A DNA stretch of 64,000 nucleotides from the NCBI GenBank assembly GCA_035446965.1, contig DAOTGE010000006.1:728-64727 (forward strand), given 5' to 3'. A program made the translations under genes and the position numbers. This document shows, in pieces, positions 12,329 to 37,351 of the stretch. The number at the start of each line of letters is the position of its first letter. Within the stretch, counting starts at the first letter, position 1. The DNA is from Eubacteriales bacterium. GTDB lineage: Bacteria; Bacillota; Clostridia; Christensenellales; CAG-138. The notes beneath the pieces were generated by a model. That model had not been told where the DNA came from. It saw nothing but the letters and a program-made list of their open reading frames with translations, and did no database searches.

Positions 12329-12407
12329 TTATACACATCCCAAAAGCCGAAAACATCGCGATATGTGGATAACATGGTGGACAATGTGGATAAACGGGTG
12401 TGGATAA
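12329..12407. promoter_or_regulatory. Distal DnaA-box cluster 1
   Basis: TGTGGATAA at 12364-12372, 12385-12393 and 12399-12407; degenerate GGTGGACAA at 12376-12384; TTATACACA at 12329-12337. Confidence 0.85.
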
Positions 12408-12691
12408 CTCATACAGTTTTCGTGCATAATGCTGAAAACGGTAAAGATTTGCTGTATGGTAAAGCCGTAAAAAGAAAAGGAGTTTTGCAGGAAATCCTGC
12501 CGGAATTTGAGAAAAAACTCGAGGTGCGTGCAGAAAACGGAAGGCAGAGTGAAAAAAGGACGTGCCTTAAAACAGGAAAAATAACGGCTGGTTCCATAAA
12601 AGCACGCCGCCACTGGCGGGAATGGCGTGCAGCGGGTATACTGATAAGGAACAAAAGACCGGATGAAATGCCGGGCATGGAGGAGCAGAAA

Positions 12692-13216
12692 ATGCGGATG
12701 TTTATTGCAGTCCCGCTTCCGCCGGATGTGGTGCGCGCGGTTGCGCATGCGCGCGCGGCGCTGGAAGGGTACGGCGCGGCGGGCCGGTTTGTCCCGCGCG
12801 AAAACTATCACGTGACGCTGCATTTTCTTGGGGAAACGGATCAATTGATGGAGGCGGCCGGTGCGGTCGGCGAAGCCTGCAAGGACATTCATCCGTTCGT
12901 CCTGCGGCTGGGCGGATATGGTTCGTTCAAGAGTGAAAAATCGCATACGGGGTTCGTTTCGGTTTCCTGCGACAGCGACGAGCTGGACAAGCTCTATGAA
13001 TCGCTGGAAGCGGCGCTCTGGGAACGCGGTTTCGTAAAGAACCGCGGGCGGCTCACACCGCATATTACGCTTGGCCGGCGGATCGAAGGGGACGAGGGAT
13101 TTGTTCTTCCGCCGCGCAATGTCGCGTTTACAGCAAATATGGTAACGCTTTATGAAAGCCGGAGCGAAAACGGCGTGATGCGCTACACGAGCCTGCACAG
13201 GGAGCGGTTAGTATGA
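12692..13216 (+). CDS. thpR: RNA 2',3'-cyclic phosphodiesterase (2H family, ThpR/LigT)
   Basis: MRMFIAVPLP start behind GGAGGAG; two HxT motifs (YHVTLHFLGE, PHITLGR). Confidence 0.92.
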   Translation: MRMFIAVPLPPDVVRAVAHARAALEGYGAAGRFVPRENYHVTLHFLGETDQLMEAAGAVGEACKDIHPFVLRLGGYGSFKSEKSHTGFVSVSCDSDELDKLYESLEAALWERGFVKNRGRLTPHITLGRRIEGDEGFVLPPRNVAFTANMVTLYESRSENGVMRYTSLHRERLV

Positions 13217-16200
13217 AAAGCGAACTGACGTTCCTGCTCGGTAGGGCGGGAACGGGCAAAACCTGGCGAATTTATCAGCAGCTTAAGGCGCTGCAGGCCG
13301 CGGGAGAACGCGCGGTGCTGATCGTGCCGGAACAGTATACATTCGAGACAGAACGAGCGCTGGCAGACGAAATCGGTGGGCTGCTCGGCGTGCAGGTGTT
13401 CAGTTTTCAGCGGCTTTGCGAGCGTATTTTGCAGCTGCACGGGCAGACGAAGCCGTTTTTAAGCGCGCAGGGGTACCGCATGGCCGTGCGGCGTGCGCTC
13501 GAACGGAAAAAAGGCGAACTGAAGGTGTTCGGCACAGCGTGCGCGCAAACGGGATTCGCCGCCGAAGCAGAGCAAATCTTCCGGGATTTCAAGCGCGCCG
13601 GACTTTCGCCGGACGCACTGGACTCGCTCATACAAAAACTGTCGGCTGAATCACCGCTGGCGGAAAAGCTAAGCGATCTTTCTGTACTGTACCGCGAAAC
13701 CGAAGAATATCTTTCCGAACGATATTTCAGCCTGGACGATGCGCCGGACACGGCGGCGGGCTTGCTGCCGCAGTCGTTCGTTTCCGGAATTCCTGTTTTT
13801 ATCGACGGACTCGATCATCCGAACCGGCAGACATACCGGCTCATCGAGACAATGCTTTCGTGCTGTCCGGGGGTGACGGTCGCGCTGCGCGTCGGCAGCG
13901 ACAGCCCGCCGGACGACGATCTGTTTGAACCGGACCGAAAAGCGCTTTATCTGCTGCGGCAGATCGGCGGGCGCTGCGGCGCGATCGTTCATGAAGAGCG
14001 TCTTTCGGTGCAGCAAGGTAATTTTGATCCGATGATGCGGCATATCGAGCGAAACCTGTTTGCCTATCCGGCGAAAACATGGCAGGGTGAAGCGAAAAAC
14101 CTGACCGTGTTCGGTGCAAGCGACCGCCGCGCGGAGGCGGAGTCGCTTGCCGAGGCGATTCAAAGTCTTGCGCGGAAGGGCGTTCGCTACCGCGACATGG
14201 CGGTCATCGTCTCCGACTTGGACGCGTATGCCTACCTGATCCGCCGTTCGTGCGAACGCAGAGACATTCCGATTTTTCTTGACCGCAAGCGGCCGCTGAC
14301 CGGACATGCCGCGATCGATGCGGTGCTTTCCGCCGTGCGGTTTACGGCGGGCGGTTATCCGGCCGCGGAACTGCTGAAGTTTATCAAAAGCGGCTATACC
14401 GACTGCCCGCAGGACGAAGCGGAAGAACTGGAGCTGTATCTGCGCCGCACCGGTATCCGCGGCGGGGCGTTGCTCAAGCCGTTTACCCGCGCGGAGCCTC
14501 CCGAAGCGGCGGAGCATGCACGCGGGCGGGCGGCGAACGCACTCGAACCGCTGGCAAAAGCGCTGGCGAAGGCGACGGTGTCCGAACAGGTGCGCGCGCT
14601 GTATGCGTTTTTACAGGGACTTGAATTGCAGCGGCGGCTGGAAGAACGAGCCGAACTGCTCGAGCGGGAAGGCCGCATCGCCGAGGCGCAGGAACATGCG
14701 CAGGTTTGGAACCTTTTGATCGAGATGCTCGATCAACTGGATGCGATACTGGGTTCCCTGCGCGTCGGGCGAAAGGGATTTCTTGCTTTGCTGGAAGAAG
14801 GGCTTGGCGGCGGAAGCGTCGGCGTTGTTCCCGGCACGGCGGACCAGGGACTGGTCGGCGACGTCGTGCGCACGCGCAGCCGCACGGTAAGAGCGCTGTT
14901 CGTGGTCGGCGCAAACGATGGTCTGCTCCCGTGCCCGCAGCAAAACGACGGACTGATCGACGAACGGGATTTGAGCGAACTGCGCATGCAGGGGACACAA
15001 CTGCGCTTTACCGGCGCGGAACTCGGCGCGTACGACCGCCTCGATTTATACACGGCGCTGGCCAAGACGACGGAAACGCTTTATATCAGCTTTGCCTATG
15101 GGGACGGAACGAGCGAGCTTGCGCCGTCCTCCGTTGTGGAGCGCCTGATGACCATCTGCCCGAACTGCACGGTCAAAAGCGATATCGAATCGACCGGCGA
15201 ACTGCCGGACTGCGAGGCGCAGGCGCTGACGCTTGTGGCGGGCGATTTAAGGCGATACCGGGAGAGCGGGGCTGCGTCGGAGCGCTTGCCCGCGCTGATC
15301 GACTGGCTGAGCGAAAAAGAAGAAACACGCGGGCTTGTCGCGCGCATGATTGAGGAAAGCGCCGCGCGCTTCGGCGGGCAGAAGATCGGACGGGAAACGG
15401 CAAACACCCTGTATGGTAGAATTGTTCAGATGAGTGCAAGCCGCTTGGAAAGTTTCAACAACTGCCCGTTTCAGCACTTTGTCCGCTATGGTCTTGGCGC
15501 ACAGGAGGTCAAAGAATATACCGAGCGGGCGATGGACATGGGCTCGTTTTACCATGCGGCGTTGGAAGCGTTTGTGAACGCCGTAAACGAAAAGGAGCTG
15601 CACTGGAAGCTGCTTTCGGACGAAAAAGCTGTGGAAATTGTGGACGAAGTCCTGTCGGGCGTAATCGCCGGGCATAACTTTGGCATCCTTGCGGAAAACG
15701 AGCGGCTGAAGGCGACGCTGTTCTTGCTGGTTGAAACCATCCGCCAGAGCGCGCTGGCTATTACAAGGCAAATCCGCGCCGGCAGTTTTGAGCCCGTGTA
15801 TACGGAAGCGCGCTTCGGGCCGGGCGAACCGTTCCCGGCAATCCGGCTTGCGCTCGAAGACGGAAGCGAGGCGTTCATAAAAGGAAAGATCGACCGTATC
15901 GACCGTGCGAATACGCAGGGGCGGACGCTTACGCGCGTTGTCGACTATAAGACCGGCGGACGCGATTTCGATTTCGCCGGCGTGCTCGAAGGGCTGACGC
16001 TTCAGCTGCCGCTTTATCTGATGGCGGCCAGCGGGAACGCCGAGGTGCGCGCCGGGCTGTATTACATGCCCGTGTCGCAGCCTGCCGTTTCGGACGCCGA
16101 GGAGGACGTTGAAGGTGCGGTTGCGGATGCGTTCCGCCTGCAGGGGCTGACGCTTTCGGACGCGGCGGTGGTGCGTGCGAGCGATAATCACATTGAAAGC

Positions 16201-16524
16201 GATTCTTCGGTTTTGTATAAAGTGCGCGCGGCGGGCGAAGATTCCTATTCCGGCAGCGTGTGTTCGAAAGCGGAGATGGATTTACTCATCCGCGCGGCAA
16301 AGCAAACGTCGGAAAAGACCTTTGCGCACATGATGGAAGGGGACATGCGCGCGTCCCCGGCGGCGCGTAAGAAAAACAGTCCCGCCTGTAAATACTGCGA
16401 CTACAAGAGCGTTTGCCGATTCGACCCGAAAACGCCGGGTTGCAGCGTGCGGCTGTATCGAACGGTCAAACAGGAAGAATTTTTTAAGCTGATCGGAGGC
16501 GATGCGGATGCGATGGACCGATGA
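13213..16524 (+). CDS. addB: ATP-dependent helicase/nuclease subunit B
   Basis: GRAGTGKT, LIVPEQYTF, SASRLESFNNCPFQHF, GKIDRID, VVDYKTG, QLPLY, CKYCDYKSVCRFD (Fe-S cysteines). Confidence 0.95.
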   Translation: MKSELTFLLGRAGTGKTWRIYQQLKALQAAGERAVLIVPEQYTFETERALADEIGGLLGVQVFSFQRLCERILQLHGQTKPFLSAQGYRMAVRRALERKKGELKVFGTACAQTGFAAEAEQIFRDFKRAGLSPDALDSLIQKLSAESPLAEKLSDLSVLYRETEEYLSERYFSLDDAPDTAAGLLPQSFVSGIPVFIDGLDHPNRQTYRLIETMLSCCPGVTVALRVGSDSPPDDDLFEPDRKALYLLRQIGGRCGAIVHEERLSVQQGNFDPMMRHIERNLFAYPAKTWQGEAKNLTVFGASDRRAEAESLAEAIQSLARKGVRYRDMAVIVSDLDAYAYLIRRSCERRDIPIFLDRKRPLTGHAAIDAVLSAVRFTAGGYPAAELLKFIKSGYTDCPQDEAEELELYLRRTGIRGGALLKPFTRAEPPEAAEHARGRAANALEPLAKALAKATVSEQVRALYAFLQGLELQRRLEERAELLEREGRIAEAQEHAQVWNLLIEMLDQLDAILGSLRVGRKGFLALLEEGLGGGSVGVVPGTADQGLVGDVVRTRSRTVRALFVVGANDGLLPCPQQNDGLIDERDLSELRMQGTQLRFTGAELGAYDRLDLYTALAKTTETLYISFAYGDGTSELAPSSVVERLMTICPNCTVKSDIESTGELPDCEAQALTLVAGDLRRYRESGAASERLPALIDWLSEKEETRGLVARMIEESAARFGGQKIGRETANTLYGRIVQMSASRLESFNNCPFQHFVRYGLGAQEVKEYTERAMDMGSFYHAALEAFVNAVNEKELHWKLLSDEKAVEIVDEVLSGVIAGHNFGILAENERLKATLFLLVETIRQSALAITRQIRAGSFEPVYTEARFGPGEPFPAIRLALEDGSEAFIKGKIDRIDRANTQGRTLTRVVDYKTGGRDFDFAGVLEGLTLQLPLYLMAASGNAEVRAGLYYMPVSQPAVSDAEEDVEGAVADAFRLQGLTLSDAAVVRASDNHIESDSSVLYKVRAAGEDSYSGSVCSKAEMDLLIRAAKQTSEKTFAHMMEGDMRASPAARKKNSPACKYCDYKSVCRFDPKTPGCSVRLYRTVKQEEFFKLIGGDADAMDR

Positions 16525-19500
16525 ACAGCGTAGCGCAATTGAAACCGGCGGGAACCTGATCGTCTCCGCGGCGGCGGGGGCGGGGAAGACCGCCGTGCTG
16601 ACCGAGCGCGTGGTGTCGCGCGTTCTGGATGGAACGCCGGTGGAAAACATGCTGGTGCTTACCTTCACACGCGCGGCCGCGGCGGAGATGAAAACAAGGA
16701 TCGCTGCCCGCCTCAACGAACTTGCCGGCGAACAGGAAGACGTAAAGAAAACGCAGTATCTGCGCAGGCAGGCGCGGAATGTGGAAAGCGCGTATATTTC
16801 CACGATTCACGCGTTCTGTGCGCGCGTGCTCCGGCGGCATTATCATGCGGTCGGTCTGCCGGCGCAAAGCCGTACGGCGGACGATATGGAAAGCGCCGCG
16901 CTTATCGAGCGTGTGCGGGACGAGGTTTTGACAGCGCTTTCCGTAAGCGAAGATGAAGATTATAAAACGCTGCTTGCCGCGTTCGGCGGGGAAGACCCGG
17001 CGTGGAGCGCGGTGATGCAGACCTATCGCTTTACGCGTGCGCAGCCGGACCCGGACGGCTGGCTGGACGCCGCCAGCGCGCGTTACGGCGACGAACAAGC
17101 GCTGATGCGCCTGCTCGGGGACGCGGTTGCGTTTGCCGGACGCGAACTTTCGCTTGCGCTCGAACCGGTCGCCGCCGAAAGGGACGCGCTGCCGCCGCAA
17201 TGGGATAAGGCGATTACCGCGTTGGACGACGATTTGACGCGCTGCCGTGCGCTGCTGCTCTGCAAAACCTATGACGAGTACCGCGAGGCGCTGAATTCGG
17301 TTGAATTTTCGCGGATGACCTTTCCGCGGGGAACGGCGGACGCGGAAAAGAAACCGGTCCAGGCTGCGCGGCAGGCGGAAAAGGATCTGATCAAGGTACA
17401 GCTGCGGCGTTTCAGCCGTCCGCAGCATGCGGAACTTACGATTTTGCGCCGTTCCGGCGAAGCGGTGCGGGCGCTGGTTGCGGTCGTCAAACAGTTTGAA
17501 ACGGCGTATGCCGCCGCCAAACGCGAAGCCGGATTGCAGGACTACGACGATCTGGAGCATTTCACGCTGGAAGCGCTTTCGCATGAAGCGATTGCAAAAG
17601 AGTACCGCGAGCGGTTCGAGTGGATCGCGATGGACGAATATCAGGACAGCAACCGCGTGCAGGAGGAGATTGTAAAGCGCATTACCCGGGGCGATAATCT
17701 CTTTTTCGTGGGAGACGTCAAGCAGTCGATCTATCGGTTCCGGCAGGCGGAGCCAAAGCTGTTTTTGGAAAAACTTGCGTTCTTTTCGGGAGAACGGGGG
17801 ACAAGGATCGACCTGACGAGCAATTTCCGCAGTTCCGGCGAGGTGCTGTCCGCCGTGAACGAAGTTTTTTCCGCGATTCTGAACGAGGATTCCGGCGGAA
17901 TCGAATACGACGAGCGTGCGAAGCTCGCCTGCGGGGCAAACCCGCCTGAAGGCAGCGCGGAACTGCATCTGGTGCGGCGCGGGCTTGCGGAAACGGAGGA
18001 AGGGGAAGACCCGCTGGAGGACGCGGCGGACCTGGAGATTGAAGCAAGGCTGATTGCCGGCCGCATCCGGGAGATTATTGAAAAAGAATCGTATTTCGAT
18101 CCGAAAACGGGGCAGGCGCGCGCATACCGCTACAGCGATTTTGCGGTGCTGCTGCGCACGGGCGCGGGCGCACAGACCGTTGCGCAGACGCTTGCGCAAA
18201 GCAGCGTGCCGAGCTATGCGCAATCCGGCGGCGGTTATTTCGACGCGGTGGAGGTGCAGATTTTCAGGAACTTGCTGCGCGTGATCGATAACCGGCGGCA
18301 GGATGTGCCGCTGATCTCCGTGCTCTGTTCCTCCATTGGGAATTTCACATATGAAGAACTGGCGCGCGTACGGGCCGCGCACAGGGCGGGATCGTTCTTT
18401 GAAGCGTTTGCCGCCTGTGCCGAACAGGACGAAACGGCGCTTGGGACGCGGGCAAAGCGCTTCTTTGAAACGCTCGCGCGGTACCGCGAAGAAAGCAGGC
18501 TGGTTTCCGTTGAGGAACTCGTCGGAAAACTGCTGGACGAAACGGGGTTTTATGAGGAGATGGGCGCGGGCGTCAACGGCATGCAGAGACAGGCGAACCT
18601 CAACGCCCTGCTCGATAAAGCACACGCGTTCGAGCAGACGGGGTCGCGCGGCGTATGGAGCTTTCTGCGGCAGATCGACCTTGCGGAAAACAACGCTTCC
18701 GTCGGCGCGGCACAGACGCTTGCGGCGGACGTGGTCCGCATTCTGACCATCCATAAATCGAAAGGGCTTGAATTCCCGGTCGTGTTTGTCGCGGGGCTTG
18801 GGAAACGATTCAATACCGAGGATATGCGGAAGTCCGTTTTGCTGCATGCGGACGGCGGGATTGCGCTGCGCTTTATTGACCGGGAGGAAAACGGCGCGCG
18901 CGTCAAGCGCGACACGGTCGTGCGCCGCACGCTCGCCGAGCGCGTCAAAACGGAACAACTGGGTGAGGAAATGCGCGTTTTGTATGTTGCGATGACGCGC
19001 GCTAAACGGAAGCTGATCCTGACGGCATGCGTCGACAAGCCGGAGGAGAAACTGGCGCTTGCACCGGAACGCCCGAAGGCCTGGCAGGTGCTCAAATGCT
19101 CCGGCATGGCACAATGGCTTTTGATGGGAAACCACCATTTTTTGACGCGCAAGGTGCATGAGCGGGAAACTTGGCTTGCGGGTGAAAAGAAAGAAGTCCT
19201 GCCTGAACTGCCGCCGCCCGATCCGGTAACGCTGGCGGCGGTCCGGGAAAGACTCGGCTGGGAATATGCGTTTACCGGCGCCGTGCAGCTTGGCGCAAAG
19301 GCAGCGGTCAGCCGTATTGGCAAGGATGAAAACGAGCCGCCCGTGTTTTCCGAACCGGCGTTCCTCGGCAAAAAAAAGAGCGCGGTATTCACCGGGACGG
19401 CGACGCATGCCGCCATGCAGTATCTTCCGCTGGAAAAAGCGATGGACAAAGAAGAAATCGGTGTGTATCTGCAGCGGCTGGCACAAACCGGAAAGATCAC

Positions 19501-19894
19501 GCCCGAACAGGCGGAAGCTGCGGACGCGGATGCCATCGCGTGGTTTACAGATTCTTTGCTGGCGCAGCGGATGCGAAAGGCGGAGCGGCTGGAGCGGGAG
19601 CTTTCGTTTTCCTATGCGATTGCGGCAAACGTGCTTTATGGCGAAGAGATCGACACGGACGAACAGGTCCTCCTGCAGGGCGTGATGGACGTATGTTTCC
19701 TCGAAGCCGGCGGCTGGACGATTGCGGACTACAAGACCGACCGCGTCCGGCCGGGCGAAACCGCCGAAGCGGCGGCGAGCCGTCACGCGCGCCAGCTCAG
19801 GCTGTATGCAGCCGCGCTGGAGGCGCTGAGCGGGAAGACGGTTGTGCAGACGCTGGTCGTGCTGCTGTCTCATCGGGAAATCGTTGCGGTATAG
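16508..19894 (+). CDS. addA: ATP-dependent helicase/nuclease subunit A
   Basis: WTDEQ, SAAAGAGKTAVLTER, TFTRAAAAEM, STIHAFC, DEYQD, VGDVKQSIYRFR, NFRS, TIHKSKGLEFP, LYVAMTRA, QGVMD, DYKTD. Confidence 0.96.
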   Translation: MRWTDEQRSAIETGGNLIVSAAAGAGKTAVLTERVVSRVLDGTPVENMLVLTFTRAAAAEMKTRIAARLNELAGEQEDVKKTQYLRRQARNVESAYISTIHAFCARVLRRHYHAVGLPAQSRTADDMESAALIERVRDEVLTALSVSEDEDYKTLLAAFGGEDPAWSAVMQTYRFTRAQPDPDGWLDAASARYGDEQALMRLLGDAVAFAGRELSLALEPVAAERDALPPQWDKAITALDDDLTRCRALLLCKTYDEYREALNSVEFSRMTFPRGTADAEKKPVQAARQAEKDLIKVQLRRFSRPQHAELTILRRSGEAVRALVAVVKQFETAYAAAKREAGLQDYDDLEHFTLEALSHEAIAKEYRERFEWIAMDEYQDSNRVQEEIVKRITRGDNLFFVGDVKQSIYRFRQAEPKLFLEKLAFFSGERGTRIDLTSNFRSSGEVLSAVNEVFSAILNEDSGGIEYDERAKLACGANPPEGSAELHLVRRGLAETEEGEDPLEDAADLEIEARLIAGRIREIIEKESYFDPKTGQARAYRYSDFAVLLRTGAGAQTVAQTLAQSSVPSYAQSGGGYFDAVEVQIFRNLLRVIDNRRQDVPLISVLCSSIGNFTYEELARVRAAHRAGSFFEAFAACAEQDETALGTRAKRFFETLARYREESRLVSVEELVGKLLDETGFYEEMGAGVNGMQRQANLNALLDKAHAFEQTGSRGVWSFLRQIDLAENNASVGAAQTLAADVVRILTIHKSKGLEFPVVFVAGLGKRFNTEDMRKSVLLHADGGIALRFIDREENGARVKRDTVVRRTLAERVKTEQLGEEMRVLYVAMTRAKRKLILTACVDKPEEKLALAPERPKAWQVLKCSGMAQWLLMGNHHFLTRKVHERETWLAGEKKEVLPELPPPDPVTLAAVRERLGWEYAFTGAVQLGAKAAVSRIGKDENEPPVFSEPAFLGKKKSAVFTGTATHAAMQYLPLEKAMDKEEIGVYLQRLAQTGKITPEQAEAADADAIAWFTDSLLAQRMRKAERLERELSFSYAIAANVLYGEEIDTDEQVLLQGVMDVCFLEAGGWTIADYKTDRVRPGETAEAAASRHARQLRLYAAALEALSGKTVVQTLVVLLSHREIVAV

Positions 19895-19974
19895 CACAAA
19901 AGCGCTTGCAAAGCAAAAAAGAACGTGCTACGATAACGGAGAAATCGGGAACGCGTTTCCCGAAACAACACAAT

Positions 19975-20115
19975 AGCTTCGGGGCGGGGTGCAATTCCCC
20001 ACCGGCGGTGAAGCGGCAGTGCCGACAAGCCCGCGCGTCAGAACGACTGAGACGGTTGGAATCCGTCGCCGACGGTAGACCGGTCGAAAGACCGGAAAGT
20101 CCGGATGAAAGAAGC
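19975..20115 (+). ncRNA. FMN riboswitch (RFN element)
   Basis: CTTCGGGGCGGGGTGCAATTCCCCACCGGCGGT...AAGCCCGCG...GCCGACGGT...AAAGTCCGGATGAAAGAAG. Preceded by TTGCAA-N17-TACGAT (19906-19934) and followed by the terminator ACCCCGCAG-tttt-CTGTGGGGTTTTTT. Confidence 0.93.
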
Positions 20116-20187
20116 AAAATGCCGCGCGAAACGGTATGCATTCACCCCGCAGTTTTCTGTGGGGTTTTTTGTACGGAGGAAATTTTC

Positions 20188-20802: not shown

Positions 20803-20840
20803 TAGATAGAAATATATTGTTGCAAACAGCCCTAAAAGGG

Positions 20841-20890
20841 TTGACGGGATTCATTAACTGGTTTATTATAATAACAGTAATTGTTATTGT
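20841..20890 (+). promoter_or_regulatory. Sigma-A promoter with overlapping AT-rich inverted repeat (candidate PerR/Fur operator)
   Basis: TTGACG-N17-TATTAT (20841-20869), overlapped by AATAACA-gtaat-TGTTATT (imperfect palindrome 20868-20890). Confidence 0.6.
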
Positions 20891-20929
20891 AAAAGAGCAA
20901 ATAATAAGAAATGTTTTGGAGTGAAACGC

Positions 20930-21328: not shown

Positions 21329-21417
21329 AGCGGGGGACGGCCGGGCGGTCGGGCGTTCCGGACATGGAAGAGAAGACGCTTTTCAAAATATGCAATAAAC
21401 AGGAGGGTGAAAAAGTT

Positions 21418-21957: not shown

Positions 21958-21974
21958 TCGAAGCATCCAGCGAC

Positions 21975-22004
21975 AGGGACCGCGGCGTACTCGCCGCGGT
22001 CCTT
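21975..22004 (+). terminator. rbr terminator
   Basis: AGGGACCGCGGCG-TACT-CGCCGCGGTCCTT. Confidence 0.75.
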
Positions 22005-27672: not shown

Positions 27673-27682
27673 GTCGTTTTAT

Positions 27683-28606: not shown

Positions 28607-29948
28607 ACCAAACTCCCGCCGCAATCAGAAGCGCACCGCATAGGCCGCCGAACACATATACCAGCGTGAAATCCTGGCCGGTCTGCGGCAGGCTGCTCAA
28701 GCCGGTGATGTAGATGGTGATGGAGGCGCGGTTCGAGCTGTCGTCGTTGATCCAGGCGTAGAGCTTCGTGCCGGTAGTCGGCGTGTTGTAACGGGCGTAG
28801 AGCTGGATCTGCGCCTGTCCGTCTTCCATGTCGGCCCGGCTGTCGTTCAGGGTCGCGCTTGAGATCTTGAGGTAGGACGAGCTCCAGCTCCAGTGTGCGG
28901 TGCTCGTGTCGTCGTTGACGACGGTGCCGTCCGCTTCATGCAGCGTGAGCGTATAGGTACCGTAGCGGCTCGAACTGTTGAGTGCGGTCGGCCCTTCCAG
29001 CGTCAGGTAACGCGCGGTGTACACGTTTACGGTCGCCGTATGCGCCGAGGTGTAGGTGCCTGCGCCGTTGATGGTCGCCGTGATGGTGCTGCTTCCGTTC
29101 GTGCCGGACGAATTGGACGTATAGGTCGCCGTGCAGATCAGCGACGTACCGCTGGTGGTAAACGCCGTCGGCGCGGACAGCGAGCCGGCCGTCGTGTTGG
29201 AATTGCTCCAGGTCACGGTGGAAGAAGAGGTAATCAGATCTCCGCCGTAATCGACCTTCAGCTGAATGGTTGCGCTGGTACTGGCAGAGGTGATGTTCTG
29301 CGTGGCCGGCGTGATGGTGATGATCGGATTCACTGTGACCGTGCAGGTTTTGGTTTGCACGGCACCCAGCGTGGGCGTGTTCGTTGCGGTGATGACCGCC
29401 TGGCCGGCGCCGACCGCCGTCACATAACCGGTGTTCGGGTCGACCGTCGCCACGACGTCCCTGCTGGAAGACCACACTGTGGTGCTGCCCGAAGAAACGT
29501 TGCCTACGGTGAGAGTCTGTGCCGCGCCGCCGTTCAACGTCAGGGTGGAGTTGCTGATGGTCATGGCCACGACGTTGATGGTTATCGCGCTGCTGGTAAC
29601 CGGATCAGGGCCGCCGTCGTCGCTGGCGGTTACGGTGATGTCTGTGGCGGTGCCCGGAATCATGCCCGTTACGGTGATGGTGTCGCCTGTCGTGCTGGAA
29701 AGGTTGACATATCCGCCGCCGGTCGTGTTATTCCAGGTGTAGGTAAGGGTTCCAACCGGCGCGCCGGTCGGGGTTGCGGTGAGATCGACCGTTCCTCCTA
29801 CGGGAATGGTGTAGCTCTGGCCTGCGCCGGGCGTAATGGTAACGGCGGTGACGTCCGCCAAAGCCGAGTTCGGAATCCCGGCGATGACCAGCGCCAGCGC
29901 AAGCGTCATTACGACCGCAGCCGCTCTGGATAATCTGATTTTCTTCAT
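28572..29948 (-). CDS. LPXTG-anchored surface protein with Ig-like (Big_2-type) domains
   Basis: Signal peptide, Thr-rich beta-repeats, WSSSRDVVATVDPNTGYVTAVGAGQAVITAT, C-terminal LPQTG + TM + RKKR. Confidence 0.9.
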   Translation of the reverse strand: MKKIRLSRAAAVVMTLALALVIAGIPNSALADVTAVTITPGAGQSYTIPVGGTVDLTATPTGAPVGTLTYTWNNTTGGGYVNLSSTTGDTITVTGMIPGTATDITVTASDDGGPDPVTSSAITINVVAMTISNSTLTLNGGAAQTLTVGNVSSGSTTVWSSSRDVVATVDPNTGYVTAVGAGQAVITATNTPTLGAVQTKTCTVTVNPIITITPATQNITSASTSATIQLKVDYGGDLITSSSTVTWSNSNTTAGSLSAPTAFTTSGTSLICTATYTSNSSGTNGSSTITATINGAGTYTSAHTATVNVYTARYLTLEGPTALNSSSRYGTYTLTLHEADGTVVNDDTSTAHWSWSSSYLKISSATLNDSRADMEDGQAQIQLYARYNTPTTGTKLYAWINDDSSNRASITIYITGLSSLPQTGQDFTLVYVFGGLCGALLIAAGVWYAIRKKRFNDA

Positions 29949-30017
29949 GATTTTGGTTCCTCCTTTTGAGCGAACGGAACGTTATTCTCGGATGAATTTA
30001 CGCAATGGAATGATACT

Positions 30018-30046
30018 ATCATACGAACAGGTCTTCCTAATGTCAA
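30018..30046 (-). promoter_or_regulatory. Sigma-A promoter for the LPXTG protein-sortase operon
   Basis: Minus strand TTGACA-N17-TATGAT. Confidence 0.72.
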
Positions 30047-30151
30047 TAAAAGCAGGTTATCGTTTTCGATTTCTTTACCGAAACGTAACGAATCCGCCTT
30101 GTTACGGCGTCAAACCTGCACCGTGGCCGTAAAACAGAGACCAAACGCGCA

Positions 30152-31864
30152 TTATTGGTAAAACGTGTTGCCGCCGATAAACTCGCGCAGGATCGAAGTA
30201 GGCGGGATTTCATCCTCCACGTTTGCCTCCATAAAGTAGTTCAGGAATTTCACGATCGAGTGCGCTTCATCGTAATACGGGCTTTCGAGCTGAACGGCGG
30301 TCAGCAGCGGGAAAATGTGCTTTTTCAGCACCGCGGGCTCGTAGATCAGCGTCGTGTTGAAGATTGCGTCCGCATCTTCCTGAAACGGGAAAATCCATTT
30401 TTCCTCACCCGCGCGCACGCTGTCCCACATGGAGAGCGTACGTTCGATGGAAGCGCCGCGCGTTTCATAGTCGCGCACCATGCGCCGCAAGAGGCGGATG
30501 GACGTGGTCGGGATGCGGTTGTGGTCGTCCAGATTGAGCGTAGTCAGCGCGGAGACGTAGAGCCGGAAAATCAATTTTTTGTCCACGGTGCCCGGAAGCA
30601 GTTGCGGGTTGAGGCCGTGGAGCCCTTCGATGACCAGCGGGGCGCTCTCGTCGACGCGGATTTTCACGCCGCTGCGGCAGCGGCGCTGTTTGATGAAATC
30701 GAAGCGCGGCAGTTCGACCTCCTCGCCGGCCATCAGCCGGGTCAGATCGCTTTGAAACTGTTCCACGTCGATGGTGTTGAAGTGTTCCAGGTCGATCTTG
30801 CCGTCCGGGCCGGGCTTGATCGTGTCGCGGTCGCGGTAATAGTCGTCCAGCGAGACGAGCACCGGTGTTTTTCCGTGGACGCGCAGCTGCGTGCAGAGGC
30901 GGTTGGCGCTGGTCGTTTTGCCGGAACTGGACGGCCCGGCGATGACCACGGCGCGTGCACCGCGCTCGATGATTTCGTCCGCAAGCGCGGCGAAGCGTTT
31001 TTCGTGCAGCGCTTCGTTGACGCGTATCAGCGTGCGGACGTCGCCGCTGAGCACCATGTCGTTGAGATCGGCCACCACGGTGCAGTGCATGAGCCGTCCC
31101 CATTCCTCGCTTTCGGAAAACACGCCCGCAAGATGCGGCATGTATACGTGTTTTGCAGGCACGTTTGGGTCCTTTGCCGACGGACGGATCAGAAACAGGC
31201 CGGTCGGCAGCGCCTGCAGGTCGAATACGTTCGCATAACCGGTGGACGGCGCCATTTCGCCATAGAAATAGTCCACGTAATCTTCCTGCCGGTATACGTC
31301 AAAATAGGAAAACTGACGCCAGCGAAGCAGGCGCACCTTGTCCTCCTGTCCGTCACAGCTGAAGAAATCGATTGCATCGTCAACATCGACCCGCTTACGC
31401 TCCAGGGTGAGGTCCGCTTCCACAATGCGGCGCATTTCGCGCTTGACGGCAAGCACTTCCGGTTCAGTCAGGCGCATATTGTCCCCAACGCTGGCGTAAA
31501 GGCCGGCGCCGACGGCATAGTTGATGCGCACGCGGGTTTTTGGATACAGCTTGCGCATGGCGAGCAGAAACACAAACAGCATAGTTCGCTCGTACACGCG
31601 GTTGCCGCGCGCGGAATCGTACCGCAGGAGAGAAACTTCTCCGTTTGCCGCGCGGACGGCGCGCCGCAGCATCGCGCGCGGGACGGATTTGCCCTCCTGC
31701 TCGCGAACGGGCACGTAATTGAGCGTAAACGTTTCGCCGGCGACGTTGGCGGCGAGCGGTCGCGTGCGTAAATCAGCGCTGTCCAGCCCGAGCTTGCGCA
31801 CGAGGTACAGAAGCGATTCGCCGCACTGCGCGTCCACCGGGCGGCCATCTATTTTCAGCAGCAT
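30152..31864 (-). CDS. Uridine-kinase-family nucleoside kinase with N-terminal ThrRS-like (TGS/editing) region
   Basis: N-terminal ThrRS-like region (YERTMLFVFL, VDYFYGEMAPSTG); kinase IAGPSSSGKTTS, SLDDYY, LPRFDF, IEGLHGLN, RLLRRMVRD, EEKWIFPFQE. Confidence 0.88.
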   Translation of the reverse strand: MLLKIDGRPVDAQCGESLLYLVRKLGLDSADLRTRPLAANVAGETFTLNYVPVREQEGKSVPRAMLRRAVRAANGEVSLLRYDSARGNRVYERTMLFVFLLAMRKLYPKTRVRINYAVGAGLYASVGDNMRLTEPEVLAVKREMRRIVEADLTLERKRVDVDDAIDFFSCDGQEDKVRLLRWRQFSYFDVYRQEDYVDYFYGEMAPSTGYANVFDLQALPTGLFLIRPSAKDPNVPAKHVYMPHLAGVFSESEEWGRLMHCTVVADLNDMVLSGDVRTLIRVNEALHEKRFAALADEIIERGARAVVIAGPSSSGKTTSANRLCTQLRVHGKTPVLVSLDDYYRDRDTIKPGPDGKIDLEHFNTIDVEQFQSDLTRLMAGEEVELPRFDFIKQRRCRSGVKIRVDESAPLVIEGLHGLNPQLLPGTVDKKLIFRLYVSALTTLNLDDHNRIPTTSIRLLRRMVRDYETRGASIERTLSMWDSVRAGEEKWIFPFQEDADAIFNTTLIYEPAVLKKHIFPLLTAVQLESPYYDEAHSIVKFLNYFMEANVEDEIPPTSILREFIGGNTFYQ

Positions 31865-31904
31865 GGTATTCTCCTTTGCCGGTCTGTTTTATTACCCCGG
31901 CGCA

Positions 31905-33518
31905 TCAGCCCCAGAGGAGGGAAAGCGCGGGGACGATTTGCTTTTTGCGGGAGATTACGCCGGGCAGATACGCGGCGTTGTTTTTGAGCGTCACGTTAAA
32001 AGCATGCTCGACCGTTTCGGTATCGCCCACGGCATAGAGCCGTGTGCCCTCTTTGAGCACGTCGGTGAGCATCAGCAGCATCATGTCGAAACCGCGCTTT
32101 TTTATTTCCCGCTCCATAAGCGCGAGGAAACCGTCCTTCATTTTGGCGAATTCGTCGGTGTCCGCCGTGGTAATCTGCGAAATGCCGAGCGAATGGCCGG
32201 AAAACTCAAACTGCTTAAAGTCCGCAAAGTATAAATCCTCAAGGCTGTGGTTCCCGCTTGCCGAAACGGAGAAGATCTCCTCTCCGAGCGTTTCCAGCGA
32301 AAGCCCGGCAATCTTGGCCATGCGCGCGGCCATTGCGCGGTCCACGTCCGTACTGGTCGGAGACTTGAACGCGATGGTGTCCGAAACGATGGCCGCAGCG
32401 AGCAGTCCCGCGAGTTTTTTGCTCGGCATAATCCCGCGCTCGAAAAACATGCTTGTGATGATGGTGCAGGTGCTTCCGACCGGCTCGTTGCGTACGTAGA
32501 CCGGCGAGCTCGTCTGCACGTCCGCAATGCGGTGGTGGTCGATGATTTCGACGATTTCCGCCTGTTCGAGGCCGGGGACGGACTGTGAAAGTTCGTTATG
32601 GTCAACCAGTACGACGCGCTTGCGGTTGGGACGCAGCAGGTGGAAACGCGAGAGCGTGCCAACCACGCGGTCGTCGTCGTCCAGAATCGGGTAGCTTCGG
32701 AAGCGGGATTTCAGCGTTTCCTCGCGCACGTCGTCCACATAGTCGGAAAGGTGGAACGAAACGAGGTTTTCCTTCCGGCAGATGCGCGAAACGGGCACGG
32801 CGAGAAACACGAGCCTGCAGGCGGCATACGCGTCGTGCGGCGTGGCGATGACACAGGTTTTTTCGCAGCCGGCCAACAGAGAGCGGTCCACCTCGGATTC
32901 GCAGACGATCACGCACCCGGCGTGCTGTTCGAGCGCGCGCTTGAGCGCCTCCGGCTGATTGCCGCAGATGACCACGCTGCCCTCCGGGAAGTCCGGCATG
33001 CCCGTGTGATTCGGCAGAGAGAGCACCAGTTCGCCGGAAAATTCGTTAAGCTCCGCTTCCGGGTTGAGCAGTTGCCCGTCGAGACAGGCAAGCAGGTTGA
33101 ACAGCGGGATACCGTCCACGCGGTTGCTGGCAATAAGCTGCATATCGTAGGAGGCGATTTCCTCCGGCGTGAGCATGCCGTAGAGGCGGCCGTCCTCGTC
33201 CGTGACCGGTAAGGCGGGCACGCCCGCGCTGCCGCTGGCGATGGTCTGCCAGGCATGGTAAGCGCTGATGGCGGCGGAAAGAATCGGCGGAGTGTCGTAA
33301 TTTAAATCGGACACCTGCGTGCGGACGTTGTGCAGCGAAGGCGGCGCGGCAAAGTCGAATTTATCGAGCACAAGCTGCGTCTGGTCGCTGACTTCGCCGA
33401 TGCGCGCGGCGGTATAGGCGCGTTCTCCCAATGCGTTTTTCAGCATCGCATAGGCGATTGCGGCGACGATTGAATCCGTGTCCGGATTGCGGTGCCCTGT
33501 AATAAAAATCGGTTCCAT
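31905..33518 (-). CDS. ppaC: Family II Mn-dependent inorganic pyrophosphatase with CBS/DRTGG regulatory insert
   Basis: GHRNPDTDS, CBS pair around DRTGG, LVDHNE, IIDHH, EPVGST, DFKQF, SRKKQIVP; GGAGG RBS. Confidence 0.93.
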   Translation of the reverse strand: MEPIFITGHRNPDTDSIVAAIAYAMLKNALGERAYTAARIGEVSDQTQLVLDKFDFAAPPSLHNVRTQVSDLNYDTPPILSAAISAYHAWQTIASGSAGVPALPVTDEDGRLYGMLTPEEIASYDMQLIASNRVDGIPLFNLLACLDGQLLNPEAELNEFSGELVLSLPNHTGMPDFPEGSVVICGNQPEALKRALEQHAGCVIVCESEVDRSLLAGCEKTCVIATPHDAYAACRLVFLAVPVSRICRKENLVSFHLSDYVDDVREETLKSRFRSYPILDDDDRVVGTLSRFHLLRPNRKRVVLVDHNELSQSVPGLEQAEIVEIIDHHRIADVQTSSPVYVRNEPVGSTCTIITSMFFERGIMPSKKLAGLLAAAIVSDTIAFKSPTSTDVDRAMAARMAKIAGLSLETLGEEIFSVSASGNHSLEDLYFADFKQFEFSGHSLGISQITTADTDEFAKMKDGFLALMEREIKKRGFDMMLLMLTDVLKEGTRLYAVGDTETVEHAFNVTLKNNAAYLPGVISRKKQIVPALSLLWG

Positions 33519-33690
33519 GTATCCTCCCGGCGAGTTTTTTGTACCGGCCGCGCCGACCGGCGGCGGGAAAAGACGACAAAACCGCTGCCAAAGCGCATCA
33601 GCCGGCAACGGGTTCGCTTCTTCCTATTTTAACGGGTTGCGGGGAAAATCGCAAGCGGACGGCTTTTGCCGTCCGCTTGTTTTACGTATG

Positions 33691-34557
33691 TCAGCGCTCC
33701 GACGCCACGAAGAACAGCGCCACCGTACCCGGGCCGGAGTGCGCGCCGATGCTCGTGCCGATGTCGTCGATATGAACGAGCATCTTTGGATACGTCTCCC
33801 GGATGAGGCCCGCGACGTATTCCGCGTCCTCCGCTGCGTCGCAGTGGCCGAGGAACACGACGTCCGTCGCGGTTTCGTCCACGGTTTCCACCATGTGATC
33901 AAACAGTGCGCGCAGGGACTTTTTGCGGCCCTGCACTTTGCCCGTGGCGACCAGAAAACCGCCGTTGTCGACATGCATCACGGGTTTTATGTTGAGGATC
34001 GTTGCAATGGCCGCCGTCGCGCCGCTGATGCGGCCGCCGCGCTTAAGGTAAACGAGGTCGTCCACGGTGAACCAATGCGCAAAATGGAGTTTGCTTTCTT
34101 CAAGCCACCGGGTCAGCGCATCTAAGCCGAGCTCTTTTTGCTTGCGCGCGGCGTAGTAGACGAGCAGGCCTTCGCCGAGCGAGGCTGAAAGGGAGTCCAC
34201 GACGATTACTTTGCGCTGCGGGAATTTTGCTTCCAGGTCTTCTTTTGCGGCGAGCGCGGATTGGAGCGTCCCGGACAGCTTGGAGGAAAAACCGACATAA
34301 AGCACGTCCTCACCGGCCTTCAGCACGGGCTCGAACGCTTCGATAAACGAATAGGCGTTGATTTGCGCGGTAGTGACCAGTTTGCCGGCGCGCATTTCCG
34401 TAAAAAACGTTTCGATCGGCAGGTCCGATCTGCCGGGAATGTAGCTGTAATCCTTCCCGTCCAGCGTAAAGCCCATCGGAAGGACGGTAACGTTCCACTC
34501 GTCCGCAAATTTTGCGGGAAGATCGCTGGTTGCGTCGGTAAAGATACGGTAAGCCAT
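33691..34557 (-). CDS. DegV family fatty-acid-binding protein
   Basis: IFTDATSDL, TTAQ, SSKLSGT, VDSLSASLGEG, DDLVYLKRGGRIS, LNIKP, IGAHSGPG. Confidence 0.95.
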   Translation of the reverse strand: MAYRIFTDATSDLPAKFADEWNVTVLPMGFTLDGKDYSYIPGRSDLPIETFFTEMRAGKLVTTAQINAYSFIEAFEPVLKAGEDVLYVGFSSKLSGTLQSALAAKEDLEAKFPQRKVIVVDSLSASLGEGLLVYYAARKQKELGLDALTRWLEESKLHFAHWFTVDDLVYLKRGGRISGATAAIATILNIKPVMHVDNGGFLVATGKVQGRKKSLRALFDHMVETVDETATDVVFLGHCDAAEDAEYVAGLIRETYPKMLVHIDDIGTSIGAHSGPGTVALFFVASER

Positions 34558-34858
34558 ACTTCGCCTCGTTTCTGCGCGCGGCAGCGGCGCGCCTTTTAGT
34601 ATCCGCGGGGGAAACCACCGCGAACTGATACTTTATTGTACCGTCTTTTCAAAAACGTGACAAGCGCTTTGGACAAACACTGGTTTTGATTATCAAACCA
34701 GTGGCCCGCACAGGCGGGCAGCGGGCCGACGGCAAAACACGCCCGGAAATAGCGCACATTTGCAGGGATATGTTATAATAGCGCTGCGCGCGTATCCGTG
34801 GACCCGGTGGCTCGCAGGCAGGCGCGCGGACCCCCATAACAGGAGCTGAGAATTAATT

Positions 34859-35971
34859 ATGAAAAAAGTGCTTTCCGTAGGGATGGCGACCGTCGCCTCT
34901 ATCCTGCTGATTCTGATTTTGGTGTTTACCTCTATCGGGCTTGTGATCAACGACGAGACGTTTATCAACAACGAGTTCACGAAGCTTTCCATCAGTGAAG
35001 AGATGGGCATCAGCAACTCCGACCTCGTACGGGCGATGACGCAGCTTGTAGATTATATGGAAGGCGACGCGGATGATATCAGCGTCGAGGTCACGCTCGA
35101 CGGCGAGCAGGTCGAGATGTTCGATTACCCGCAGGAAGCCGAGCATATGGCGGACGTGCGGCAAATCTACACGACGATTGCGTCGTACAGGGACATGGGC
35201 GTACTTGTGATGCTGATTCTGTTTCTGTTTGCGGCGGTGGTGGATTTCCGAAAAGCGCCGCAGCGGCTTGCGCAGGGTTATCTTTCCGGTTCGTTTGTCA
35301 TGCTGCTGATCTTTGGATTTTTAGGAACGTGGGCGGCGCTGGACTTCTCCAATTTCTGGACGTTTTTTCACCAGGCGCTGTTTTGGAACGACCTTTGGCT
35401 GTTCGACGCGACCGAAAGCCGCATGATCAACATGCTTCCGGAAGATTTTTTTGCGGATACCGTCGGGCGCATCGGCCTGTATGCAGGCGCGGTCATTGTC
35501 GCACTTATCGTGCTGAGCATCCTTGCGCTGGCGCTTTCCTCCGACGCGCATAAACGCCGCCGGGCGATTGCGCAGGCGCGCGGCAAAGCGCGCAAAGACG
35601 CCTCCGAGTCGCGGAAAAAAGCGAAACAGCAGGCAAAGGAAGAGGCGGAAGAGCAAAAACGTTTGGCCGAGGAACAGAAGCGGTTGGAGGAGAAAAAGGC
35701 ACGCATTGCTGCGGCAAGGGCAAAGAAGCAGCAGCGGCTTGAAACCGAACGGAAAGCGGCGGAGCAGGAGCGACTCACGCAGGAACGTCGTGAAAAAAAG
35801 CATGCCGGGACACATGCGGAAACCGCCGCGCAGCGAAACGCGCCTTCCGCGCGGCAGGCCGCAAAAGCGCCGGCGCAAAAACGGAGCGCCGCGCAAAAAT
35901 CGGCCGCTCACCAAAAAACAAAACAGAAGAAAGAGAATATCGCCGACGATACGGGGTTCCTGGATGACTGA
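34859..35971 (+). CDS. TIGR01906/DUF1461 membrane protein (lipoprotein intramolecular transacylase Lit-like) with long basic/charged C-terminal tail
   Basis: EHMADVR and FWTFFHQALFWNDLWLFD..SRMINMLPEDFF motifs, 4 TM segments, about 130-aa K/E/A/R-rich tail. Confidence 0.78.
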   Translation: MKKVLSVGMATVASILLILILVFTSIGLVINDETFINNEFTKLSISEEMGISNSDLVRAMTQLVDYMEGDADDISVEVTLDGEQVEMFDYPQEAEHMADVRQIYTTIASYRDMGVLVMLILFLFAAVVDFRKAPQRLAQGYLSGSFVMLLIFGFLGTWAALDFSNFWTFFHQALFWNDLWLFDATESRMINMLPEDFFADTVGRIGLYAGAVIVALIVLSILALALSSDAHKRRRAIAQARGKARKDASESRKKAKQQAKEEAEEQKRLAEEQKRLEEKKARIAAARAKKQQRLETERKAAEQERLTQERREKKHAGTHAETAAQRNAPSARQAAKAPAQKRSAAQKSAAHQKTKQKKENIADDTGFLDD

Positions 35972-37040
35972 GTACGACCGGCGCGCCGGGGAAAAACTGG
36001 CGGCGCTGAAGCGCGGGCAGGCCGCAAAGGTGCTCGCGATTGAAACATCGTGCGACGAAACCGCCGCCGCGGTCGTGGAAAACGGACGGAGGGTGCTTTC
36101 CAGCGCCGTACATACGCAAATTCCTCTGCACGTTCCCTACGGCGGAGTCGTGCCGGAGATCGCTTCCCGCAGCCATGTCCAGAAGATCGGCCCGGTCGTA
36201 CAGCGCGCGCTTGAACAGGCGGGCATGTCCCTTGCGCAAATGGACGCCGTCGCCGTGACGAACGGGCCCGGACTGGTCGGGGCGCTGCTGGTCGGCCTGA
36301 GTTATGCAAAGGGCCTTGCCTATGCGGCTGGACTGCCGTTTCTTGGCGTGCACCATATTGCGTCGCACATTGCGGCGAACTATCTGACCTATGCGGAACT
36401 GGAGCCGCCGTTTACATGCCTCGTGGTGTCCGGCGGCCACAGCCATATTATCGCCGTGGAAGCATACGACCGCTACCGCCTGATCGGGCGCACGCGGGAC
36501 GACGCCGCTGGGGAGGCGTTCGACAAGGTCGCGCGCGTACTCGATCTGCCGTACCCCGGCGGGCCGAATCTGGAAAAGCTCGCTCTGTCCGGCGATCCGA
36601 TGAAATATACGTTTCACTCGGCGTTCAACGAGGGGGATGGGTTCGACTTCAGTTTTTCCGGCATCAAAACCGCCGTGGTCAACCGCCTGCACAACGCGCG
36701 CCAGACGGGCGAAAAAATCGATCCGGCCGATCTGGCCGCGTCGTTTCAGCGGACCGTGGTGGATATCCTTACGGAAAAGGCCGTGCGCGCAGCGCTGCTT
36801 GAACGCGGGAAAACCGGCGGCAAGCTCGCGCTGGCCGGCGGGGTTTCCGCCAACAAGGCGCTCCGCGGCGCGTTGGAAAAGCGGTCGGCGGAGGCGGGCG
36901 TGGCGTTTTATTGCCCGGCGTTTGAATACTGCACGGACAACGCCGCAATGGTCGGCGCGGCGGCGTATGGCAAACTCCGGGAGGGCTGTGTCGATGATTT
37001 TTCACTCAACGCGATACCGTATCTTTCCATAGAGGCATAG
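35964..37040 (+). CDS. tsaD: tRNA t6A threonylcarbamoyltransferase TsaD
   Basis: LAIETSCDET, GGVVPEIASRSH, GPGLVGAL, HHIASH, VSGGHS, DDAAGEAFDKVAR, FSFSGIK, CTDNAAM. Confidence 0.97.
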   Translation: MTEYDRRAGEKLAALKRGQAAKVLAIETSCDETAAAVVENGRRVLSSAVHTQIPLHVPYGGVVPEIASRSHVQKIGPVVQRALEQAGMSLAQMDAVAVTNGPGLVGALLVGLSYAKGLAYAAGLPFLGVHHIASHIAANYLTYAELEPPFTCLVVSGGHSHIIAVEAYDRYRLIGRTRDDAAGEAFDKVARVLDLPYPGGPNLEKLALSGDPMKYTFHSAFNEGDGFDFSFSGIKTAVVNRLHNARQTGEKIDPADLAASFQRTVVDILTEKAVRAALLERGKTGGKLALAGGVSANKALRGALEKRSAEAGVAFYCPAFEYCTDNAAMVGAAAYGKLREGCVDDFSLNAIPYLSIEA

Positions 37041-37058
37041 CGTACCGGCAGAGCTTTT

Positions 37059-37094
37059 CGCCGCGCCCCGTGTTTCGGGGCGCGGCGGTTTTTT
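37059..37094 (+). terminator. tsaD terminator
   Basis: CGCCGCGCCCCG-tgttt-CGGGGCGCGGCG followed by a T tract. Confidence 0.88.
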
Positions 37095-37212
37095 CGTTTT
37101 GGAACAAAATACGATGGTATGTTCGCATGAATTTGGACGCAACGGGTCCGGTTTTGCTGACGGAAACTGCAAAACGGGAACGTCACAGTTTTGTCATATT
37201 TGCATAGGGGAT

Positions 37213-37351
37213 TGTGTAAAAGCTGTGTAAAACGAACGGTTTCCTTCCACAGGAACAGAGCTTATTCATCGTGCATTCTGTGGATAACCTGCAGAAAACA
37301 TTTCAAAAAGGAGCTTCGAAGTGTGGATAACTATGTGGACGGTGTGGATAG
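37213..37351. promoter_or_regulatory. Distal DnaA-box cluster 2
   Basis: TGTGGATAA at 37279-37287 and 37322-37330; TGTGGACGG 37334-37342; TGTGGATAG 37343-37351; TGTGTAAAA at 37213-37221 and 37224-37232. Confidence 0.8.

Follow-up and report, generated by a model that had tools for sequence, protein, structure and literature searches.

Two Stand-Alone DnaA-Box Clusters With a Common 30-bp Layout Near oriC of a Clostridial Genome: Candidate Sinks for ATP-DnaA

The window considered here is a stretch of 64,000 nucleotides (contig C6 positions 728-64727 of assembly G000, a Eubacteriales genome of 2.73 Mb in 106 contigs with 57.6% G+C) that contains the replication origin, oriC, and two further groups of DnaA boxes, cluster 1 and cluster 2, located about 8 and 33 kb from oriC, respectively. 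Both groups are built on the same 30-bp unit of three boxes, and both probably represent stand-alone, high-affinity DnaA-box clusters (DBCs) outside the origin, for which the most likely role is that of an origin-proximal sink for ATP-DnaA. We infer DnaA binding at both clusters from the box consensus and from data on Bacillus subtilis; a sink function for ATP-DnaA is more weakly indicated than binding. Given the conserved position behind tsaD in Clostridia and the presence of a B. subtilis cluster at the same place, cluster 2 appears to be the clostridial counterpart of DBC[gcp-ydiF] (gcp being tsaD), while cluster 1 appears to be a DBC specific to the family, located behind spo0A in sporulating relatives. 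On sequence grounds, neither cluster is predicted to be part of the origin or to lie on a promoter.

Box Clusters in the Genome

A perfect DnaA box was defined as TTATCCACA and the relaxed consensus as TTATNCACA. The strength of a group of boxes was expressed as the A value of Ishikawa et al., in our own implementation, which divides the summed affinity of four successive boxes by their mean gap. A DBC was taken to consist of at least four closely spaced boxes with no more than one mismatch from TTATNCACA and an A value above 0.3, a threshold that in B. subtilis was passed by all eight sites occupied by DnaA in vivo and by no others (PMC2533591).

In the window, 23 boxes differ from TTATCCACA at one position or none, compared with 6.2 +/- 2.6 in shuffled sequence, and none of 100 shuffles reached this number. 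Perfect boxes number 14 in the 2.73-Mb assembly, which is about the expectation from base composition by our own estimate, and eight of them lie on contig C6, which makes up 2.9% of the assembly (binomial P = 1.2e-9). When neighbouring boxes no more than 100 nt apart were chained, the whole assembly yielded three groups of at least three boxes, namely oriC, cluster 1, and cluster 2, and an A value above 0.3 was found at these three places only (1.3 for cluster 1, 0.37 for cluster 2, and 0.32 for oriC). Clustering of the boxes by chance is excluded, and both clusters have the box number and the A value of a DBC. The boxes listed for the two clusters in an initial annotation of the window are all present where it placed them (Table 1), and its description of the clusters as stronger than oriC holds on the A value. 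Similar clusters at background frequency genome-wide, which it had named as grounds for refutation, are not seen in a genome-wide scan of box density, in which only oriC and the two clusters stand out.

The dnaA-dnaN spacer has the sequence features of a complete origin with an unwinding unit of its own. An abutting pair of boxes, TTTTCCACA-CTTTGCACA, is followed by trio-like repeats of the CTA type (CTACTACTCCTGCTTC) and then by an AT-rich tract, and the GC skew changes sign here. Since oriC is itself equipped with a box pair, trio-like repeats, and an AT-rich tract, the two clusters are not regarded as parts of the origin. In the DnaA protein encoded in the window, the C-terminal DNA-binding domain is normal (Bac_DnaA_C, E = 2.6e-22). 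The single perfect box that the initial annotation had counted in oriC is confirmed, with five one-mismatch boxes to be added; its statement that the region upstream of dnaA has no perfect box is correct, but the region is not entirely empty, as the relaxed consensus is matched by one TTATGCACA at 6468.

Table 1. Coordinates of oriC, the two DnaA-box clusters, and adjoining signals in the window
Feature	Position	Strand	Remarks
oriC	4659..4893		between dnaA (4953-6296, -) and dnaN (3502-4605, -); 1 perfect and 5 one-mismatch boxes
Cluster 1	12329-12429		overall extent
Cluster 1, opposite-facing box TTATACACA	12329..12337	+	fits TTATNCACA; 26 nt before three-box unit
Cluster 1, three-box unit TGTGGATAA-CAT-GGTGGACAA-TGTGGATAA	12364..12393	-	boxes at 12364, 12376, 12385; starts 0/12/21
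Cluster 1, fourth box, perfect TGTGGATAA	12399..12407	-	after ACGGG, 5 nt past unit; conserved in genus
Cluster 1, fifth box, degenerate CGTGCATAA	12421..12429	-	13 nt past fourth box
Probable promoter of thpR(ligT-like)-addB-addA operon, TGGCGG-17 nt-TATACT	12614..12642	+	consensus match; TATACT block conserved in genus
tsaD intrinsic terminator	37058..37098	+	13-bp GC-rich stem and T-run
Cluster 2	37279-37363		overall extent
Cluster 2, upstream perfect box TGTGGATAA	37279..37287	-	43 nt start to start before unit; 34-nt spacer
Cluster 2, three-box unit TGTGGATAA-CTA-TGTGGACGG-TGTGGATAG	37322..37351	-	boxes at 37322, 37334, 37343; starts 0/12/21
Cluster 2, degenerate box CGTGAATAT	37355..37363	-	conserved; TGAATAT columns invariant in alignment of relatives; region rich in TGNATA cores

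Architecture of the Three-Box Unit

In both clusters the 30-bp unit consists of a strong box, 3 nt, a weak TGTGGA-type box, and an abutting strong box, all on the same strand, with the two strong boxes separated by two helical turns. TGTGGA is constant in the middle box and the last three bases are variable. Among the matches listed for the family, 119 of 150 gaps between strong co-oriented boxes measured 0 nt (24), 3 nt (32), or 12 nt (63), the last of which corresponds to the 3 + 9 + 0 of the unit. At oriC and at Escherichia coli datA, head-to-tail oligomers of ATP-DnaA form on boxes arranged in a co-oriented strong-weak-strong order (PMC5742627).

The DNA within 200 nt on either side of the units is enriched in the 6-mers TATGCA, TATACA, and TATTCA and their complements, as found by k-mer enrichment; TATGCA/TGCATA occurs 87 times in these flanks, with about 7.6 occurrences expected. 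In the window, six TATNCA cores are found at cluster 1 and eight at cluster 2 (0.3 expected). Because each of the flank motifs contains TATNCA, the core of the relaxed box, they may be weak DnaA sites rather than sites of a second protein, another factor being conceivable as well. No position or phase of the weak cores was common to all loci examined.

Beyond the unit, each cluster carries further boxes that recur in relatives. At exactly -35 relative to the unit, most loci of the cluster-1 type in other genera have a TTATNCACA-type box that faces the other way, as does cluster 1 itself, and the same -35 box is present in all six other species of the genus that were examined. At the position of the degenerate fifth box, two species of the genus have TGTGAATAA, and the close variants TGTGAATAC/G, CTGAATAA, and CGTGAATAC are found in the others. 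All six boxes of cluster 1 are kept in an alignment of six other species of the genus. In the closed genomes L150 and L151, the positions estimated for cluster 1 fell in DNA with no boxes, and the estimates are probably wrong. In relatives of cluster 2, a box is found at -40 to -44 relative to the unit; other families of Clostridia have an abutting pair of boxes at about -44 to -79. A perfect TTATCCACA that stands outside any cluster was noted 3 kb from cluster 2, at 40276-40284, within an open reading frame (ORF) at 40023-40370.

Conservation of the Unit and Its Position

The depth of conservation was gauged by pattern searches for the unit, for which a pattern read backwards served as the control. 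The searches covered a family set of 151 genomes from 50 genera and an outside-family set of 400 Clostridia genomes. The unit is carried by 61 of the 151 family genomes and by 28 of the 50 genera, usually in one or two copies, and the control gave no match. More copies of the module and a constant spacing in relatives had been named in the initial annotation as checks on its proposal, and the shared unit is indeed conserved. In three relatives with 76-90% TsaD identity, the unit of cluster 2 is unchanged except for one base, a C/T difference in the middle box, and the mean column identity of the spacer around it is just 62%.

Outside the family, a strict pattern, TGTGGATAA-N5-TGGA-N3-TGTGGATA, was found in 23 of the 400 genomes (control, 0), and 17 of these 23 units follow tsaD at a distance of 100-350 nt and point the same way as the gene, at TsaD identities of 46-57%. 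The gene on the far side of the tsaD-linked unit varies between families. In an unbiased sample, in which 800 nt behind tsaD were surveyed in 78 Clostridia genomes of 45 families, at least three boxes within 120 nt were found in 20 genomes and 13 families; nearly all of the boxes in this survey have the orientation of tsaD, and box starts at x, x+12, and x+21 are found repeatedly. Conservation behind tsaD is nevertheless patchy. Five other genera of the family have no boxes there, and their unit of the cluster-2 type sits elsewhere, which indicates that the unit is independent of tsaD in cis. In one other genus of the family (L031:1501-1529), a unit lies behind tsaD in an orientation inverted relative to the gene.

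Two variants of the unit exist in the family, with GGTGGACAA (cluster-1 type) or TGTGGA(C/T)GG (cluster-2 type) as the middle box, and the former is found again in many genera. In several genera the cluster-1 variant precedes thpR-addB and points the same way, and in most of these it also directly follows a gene for a full-length response regulator whose C-terminal domain is that of Spo0A (E about 1e-39). Genomes with spo0A beside cluster 1 also hold a second full-length but lower-scoring gene of the Spo0A type, and the genus of the window has this second type only, which suggests that it has lost the canonical spo0A adjoining cluster 1 and retained the cluster. Loci of the Spo0A type were recorded outside the window at C3:41270-42046 and C23:18538-18837 of assembly G000, and in relatives at L011:547-1338 and L017:436-1293; the genus of the window also has a short ORF that consists of the Spo0A_C domain alone.

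Proximity to the origin is a further shared property within the family. A distance of 2-46 kb separates the unit from dnaA in every case in which one contig carries both. Within the genus, units of the cluster-1 type lie 8.3-10.3 kb and those of the cluster-2 type 30-46 kb from dnaA, including in three single-contig genomes. At least 20 of 76 unit places share a contig with dnaA, far above chance for fragmented assemblies of 2-3 Mb. In one genus of the family (G049:C91, G125:C77, G112:C176, and G136:C150), the unit is just 2.4-4.4 kb from dnaA.

Genomic Surroundings of the Clusters

Both clusters occupy gene-free spacers, in which searches for Rfam families, tRNAs, and small ORFs returned no RNA family, no tRNA, and no plausible or conserved ORF. 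The spacer of cluster 1, about 600 nt in length, separates a murA-type gene (10790-12070) from a LigT/ThpR-like gene, which is followed by addB and addA. The candidate promoter of this operon (Table 1) lies about 200 nt downstream of the cluster. A second promoter candidate, within cluster 1 (TGGATA-18 nt-CATAAT), was rejected, its -10 element being the degenerate fifth box, which the genus retains as TGTGAATAA or a close variant. The murA-thpR spacer (window 12071-12700) contains more genus-conserved blocks that are not boxes, among them CTTTCACACATGGTAAA and TTTTGCAGGA downstream of cluster 1 and CACCC..TGGTAC...TTGTATA upstream of it. An FMN riboswitch (RF00050, 89.7 bits) is located directly after addA, at 19971-20120.

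On one side of cluster 2 is the terminator of tsaD, the product of which (PF00814, E = 5e-93) ends at 37040; on the other is the 3' end of a VTT/TVP38-family gene convergent with tsaD. The initial annotation had described the two genes as convergent and had considered cluster 2 unlikely to be a promoter operator. The gene arrangement is borne out, a strong tsaD terminator can be added to it, and a cluster that follows a terminator between convergent genes is an improbable operator. Conserved blocks surround cluster 2 in relatives (window 37170-37215 and 37375-37450), namely CTGCAAAA, GTCACAGTTTTG.CATATTTGCATAG, GGAATATCTATGCA, and TTGCAGGGAAA; some hold TATNCA cores and others are unlike DnaA boxes.

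A Proposed Sink for ATP-DnaA

A mechanism can be envisaged in which the strong boxes anchor DnaA first and ATP-DnaA then cooperatively occupies the weak middle box and the flanks, where weaker TGNATA cores surround the unit over about 200 bp. Since the clusters are 8 and 33 kb from oriC, they would be copied within seconds of initiation, the local sink for ATP-DnaA would be doubled, and re-initiation would be damped. Studies in B. subtilis provide the background for such a role. In vitro, the gcp/ydiF region binds ATP-DnaA with a dissociation constant of 0.15 uM, among the tightest regions, and shows a 16-fold preference for the ATP form at low protein concentration (PMC4447404). Deletion of all six B. 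subtilis DBCs causes over-initiation, raising the ori/ter ratio from 2.32 to 3.17, and rescue of this defect depends on origin proximity (PMC3245932). No YabA (PF06156) above the cut-off was found in the window's assembly or in three closed genomes of the genus (G061, G149, and G087), a profile-search negative that is weak evidence; if YabA is missing, more of the braking of DnaA would fall to other systems.

Several observations weigh against a sink. Deletion of DBC[gcp-ydiF] alone has no effect in B. subtilis, and its re-insertion near oriC gave no rescue of the six-fold deletion (ori/ter 3.13 versus 3.17; PMC3245932), so that the closest known relative of cluster 2 is not an effective sink by itself. 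For this reason, the sink role is considered just moderately likely for cluster 2. Proximity to the origin is not universal, as the tsaD-linked cluster outside the family can be 153-291 kb from dnaA. In the few genomes compared for tsaD-dnaA distance, the cluster is present at 3, 153, and 291 kb and absent at 85, 446, 910, and 1317 kb, a pattern that is not clean. About ten sites would hold a small fraction of the cellular DnaA unless binding spreads or hydrolysis is stimulated. The proposal in the initial annotation that the two stretches are DnaA-box clusters outside oriC of the kind represented by B. subtilis DBCs and E. coli datA stands, as they are conserved, near the origin, and not promoter operators, and titration itself is a reasonable extension of it.

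A more far-reaching version of the sink, which we offer as speculation, is that the 30-bp unit is a dedicated ATP-DnaA trap throughout Clostridia and that the two traps within 33 kb of oriC constitute the main brake on re-initiation in the genus, where YabA was not detected and the spo0A copy beside cluster 1 is missing, as a functional datA analogue in which ATP hydrolysis might be stimulated with HU in place of IHF.

Alternative Explanations

The clusters might instead be DnaA-dependent transcription switches, with cluster 1 tuning thpR-addB-addA, an operon of double-strand-break repair, or read-through from spo0A in relatives, and cluster 2 tuning or blocking convergent transcription of tsaD and the VTT gene or driving an unannotated small RNA. 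Several B. subtilis DBCs, sda, ywlC, and yydA among them, are places where DnaA works as a transcription factor (PMC2533591), and both the co-directional position of cluster 1 upstream of thpR-addBA in several genera and the conserved blocks throughout the 600-nt murA-thpR spacer would suit a regulatory site. The distance of about 200 nt between cluster 1 and the conserved -35/-10 elements weighs against this view, the sole promoter-like match inside the cluster is a conserved degenerate box, and cluster 2 follows a terminator between convergent genes. The downstream gene changes by family, the unit outlasts the loss of its tsaD or spo0A neighbour, and the spacers encode no Rfam RNA family or conserved ORF. 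A transcription switch is therefore judged unlikely.

Catalytic control of the nucleotide state of DnaA, either by datA-like ATP hydrolysis or by DARS-like release of ADP, appears improbable. The co-oriented boxes, the position near the origin, and a spacer of roughly constant length (about 34-45 nt) that separates the unit from the box or boxes before it recall datA, whose essential boxes share one orientation and have a bending protein bound between boxes 2 and 3 (PMC5742627), and with no YabA detected, another brake on DnaA may be needed. However, datA and DARS2 strictly require IHF, which HU cannot replace (PMC5742627), and the IHF consensus WATCAANNNNTTR was not seen in the cluster 2 spacer on inspection by eye, no pattern search having been made. 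The DARS core requires box I to be oriented opposite to the adjacent box II and prefers ADP-DnaA (PMC5742627), whereas the three core boxes here are co-oriented and the B. subtilis counterpart prefers ATP-DnaA (PMC4447404); the nucleotide exchange suggested in the initial annotation is thus not upheld. In the literature considered, no such activity is reported for DBCs of Bacillota.

We likewise assign little weight to a structural role, in which bound DnaA bridges to oriC or recruits DnaD/DnaB or ParA/ParB and shapes the origin domain rather than the availability of DnaA. Ishikawa et al. proposed a stabilized domain structure around oriC (PMC2533591), and combined loss of the DBCs and spo0J is far worse than either alone (ori/ter 5.02; PMC3245932), but nothing in the sequence bears directly on such a role and the tsaD-linked cluster is far from oriC in some genomes.

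Finally, it is scarcely credible that the clusters represent the displaced halves of a bipartite origin, a possibility raised in the initial annotation, and that unwinding requires them in cis: the single relaxed-consensus box upstream of dnaA is unlike the rpmH-dnaA cluster usual in Bacillota, but the dnaA-dnaN spacer already contains the full unwinding unit, neither cluster has trio repeats or an AT-rich element, distances of 8 and 33 kb far exceed any known origin, the tsaD-linked cluster is 150-290 kb from dnaA in other Clostridia, and B. subtilis has such a cluster about 640 kb away alongside an intact bipartite oriC (PMC2533591).

Comparison With Known Systems

The basal unwinding system of Bacillota oriC resembles the unit in that an abutting weak-strong pair ends the unit and the oriC of this genome has the pair TTTTCCACA-CTTTGCACA. 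The clusters differ from it in having no trio repeats and no AT-rich unwinding element, for which reason they are not expected to open DNA, and the combination that would mark an origin half, trios and an AT-rich element next to dnaA, is found at neither, being confined to the dnaA-dnaN spacer 7.5 and 32 kb away.

E. coli DARS1 and DARS2 share with the clusters a core of three DnaA boxes in non-coding DNA. In DARS, box I is opposite to boxes II and III, which allows a head-to-head contact, and ADP-DnaA is preferred (PMC5742627); neither unit has this core orientation, and the one opposite-facing box of cluster 1 is 26 nt off. The likeness to E. coli datA extends to its non-coding, origin-near position and to its essential boxes, co-oriented and comprising two strong ones and one weak one. 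Furthermore, ATP-DnaA is the form on which datA acts, and the locus is replicated shortly after initiation (PMC5742627). It needs a specific IHF site between its boxes, a consensus not seen by eye in the cluster 2 spacer, and it works through stimulated ATP hydrolysis, which no paper considered reports for a Bacillota DBC.

Closer parallels exist among the DBCs of B. subtilis. Those at yydA-yycS, ywcI-vpr, ywlC-ywlB, thdF-jag, and yqeG-sda are intergenic, mostly near the origin, and have A values above 0.3, and they jointly restrain initiation. As with cluster 1, their gene neighbours change by lineage and origin proximity is retained. Several (sda, ywlC, and yydA) are true promoter operators, whereas about 200 nt separate cluster 1 from the promoter nearest to it, and none has been reported beside spo0A or addBA.

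DBC[gcp-ydiF] matches cluster 2 in its location directly behind gcp at the 3' ends of convergent genes, and hence not at a promoter (PMC2533591), and in having more perfect boxes than the dnaA-dnaN region of the origin (three versus one in B. subtilis, two versus one here). Bacillus species retain it behind gcp, just as Clostridia retain the cluster-2 type behind tsaD. The two differ in box number (8-10 versus three good and two to three weak boxes) and in distance from oriC (about 640 versus 33 kb), and they were compared through published tables rather than by the 0/12/21 box layout.

DBCs have been known in B. subtilis since 2007 and the gcp-linked site is among those published, but the roles of individual DBCs are unsettled, and the gcp/tsaD site is the least understood, with very tight binding of ATP-DnaA and yet no effect of deletion or relocation alone. 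A full-text literature search returned no paper that mentions both tsaD and DnaA boxes, so the spread of the tsaD cluster through Clostridia and its fixed layout may be unpublished. What the present comparison adds to the known systems is a fixed 30-bp layout behind tsaD in many families of Clostridia, a second cluster of the same layout that survives the loss of its neighbour spo0A, and a spacing of strong co-oriented boxes in the family of almost only 0, 3, or 12 nt. Together, these features mark out a compact unit that can be mutated, in its spacing and its middle box, for binding and ori:ter assays.

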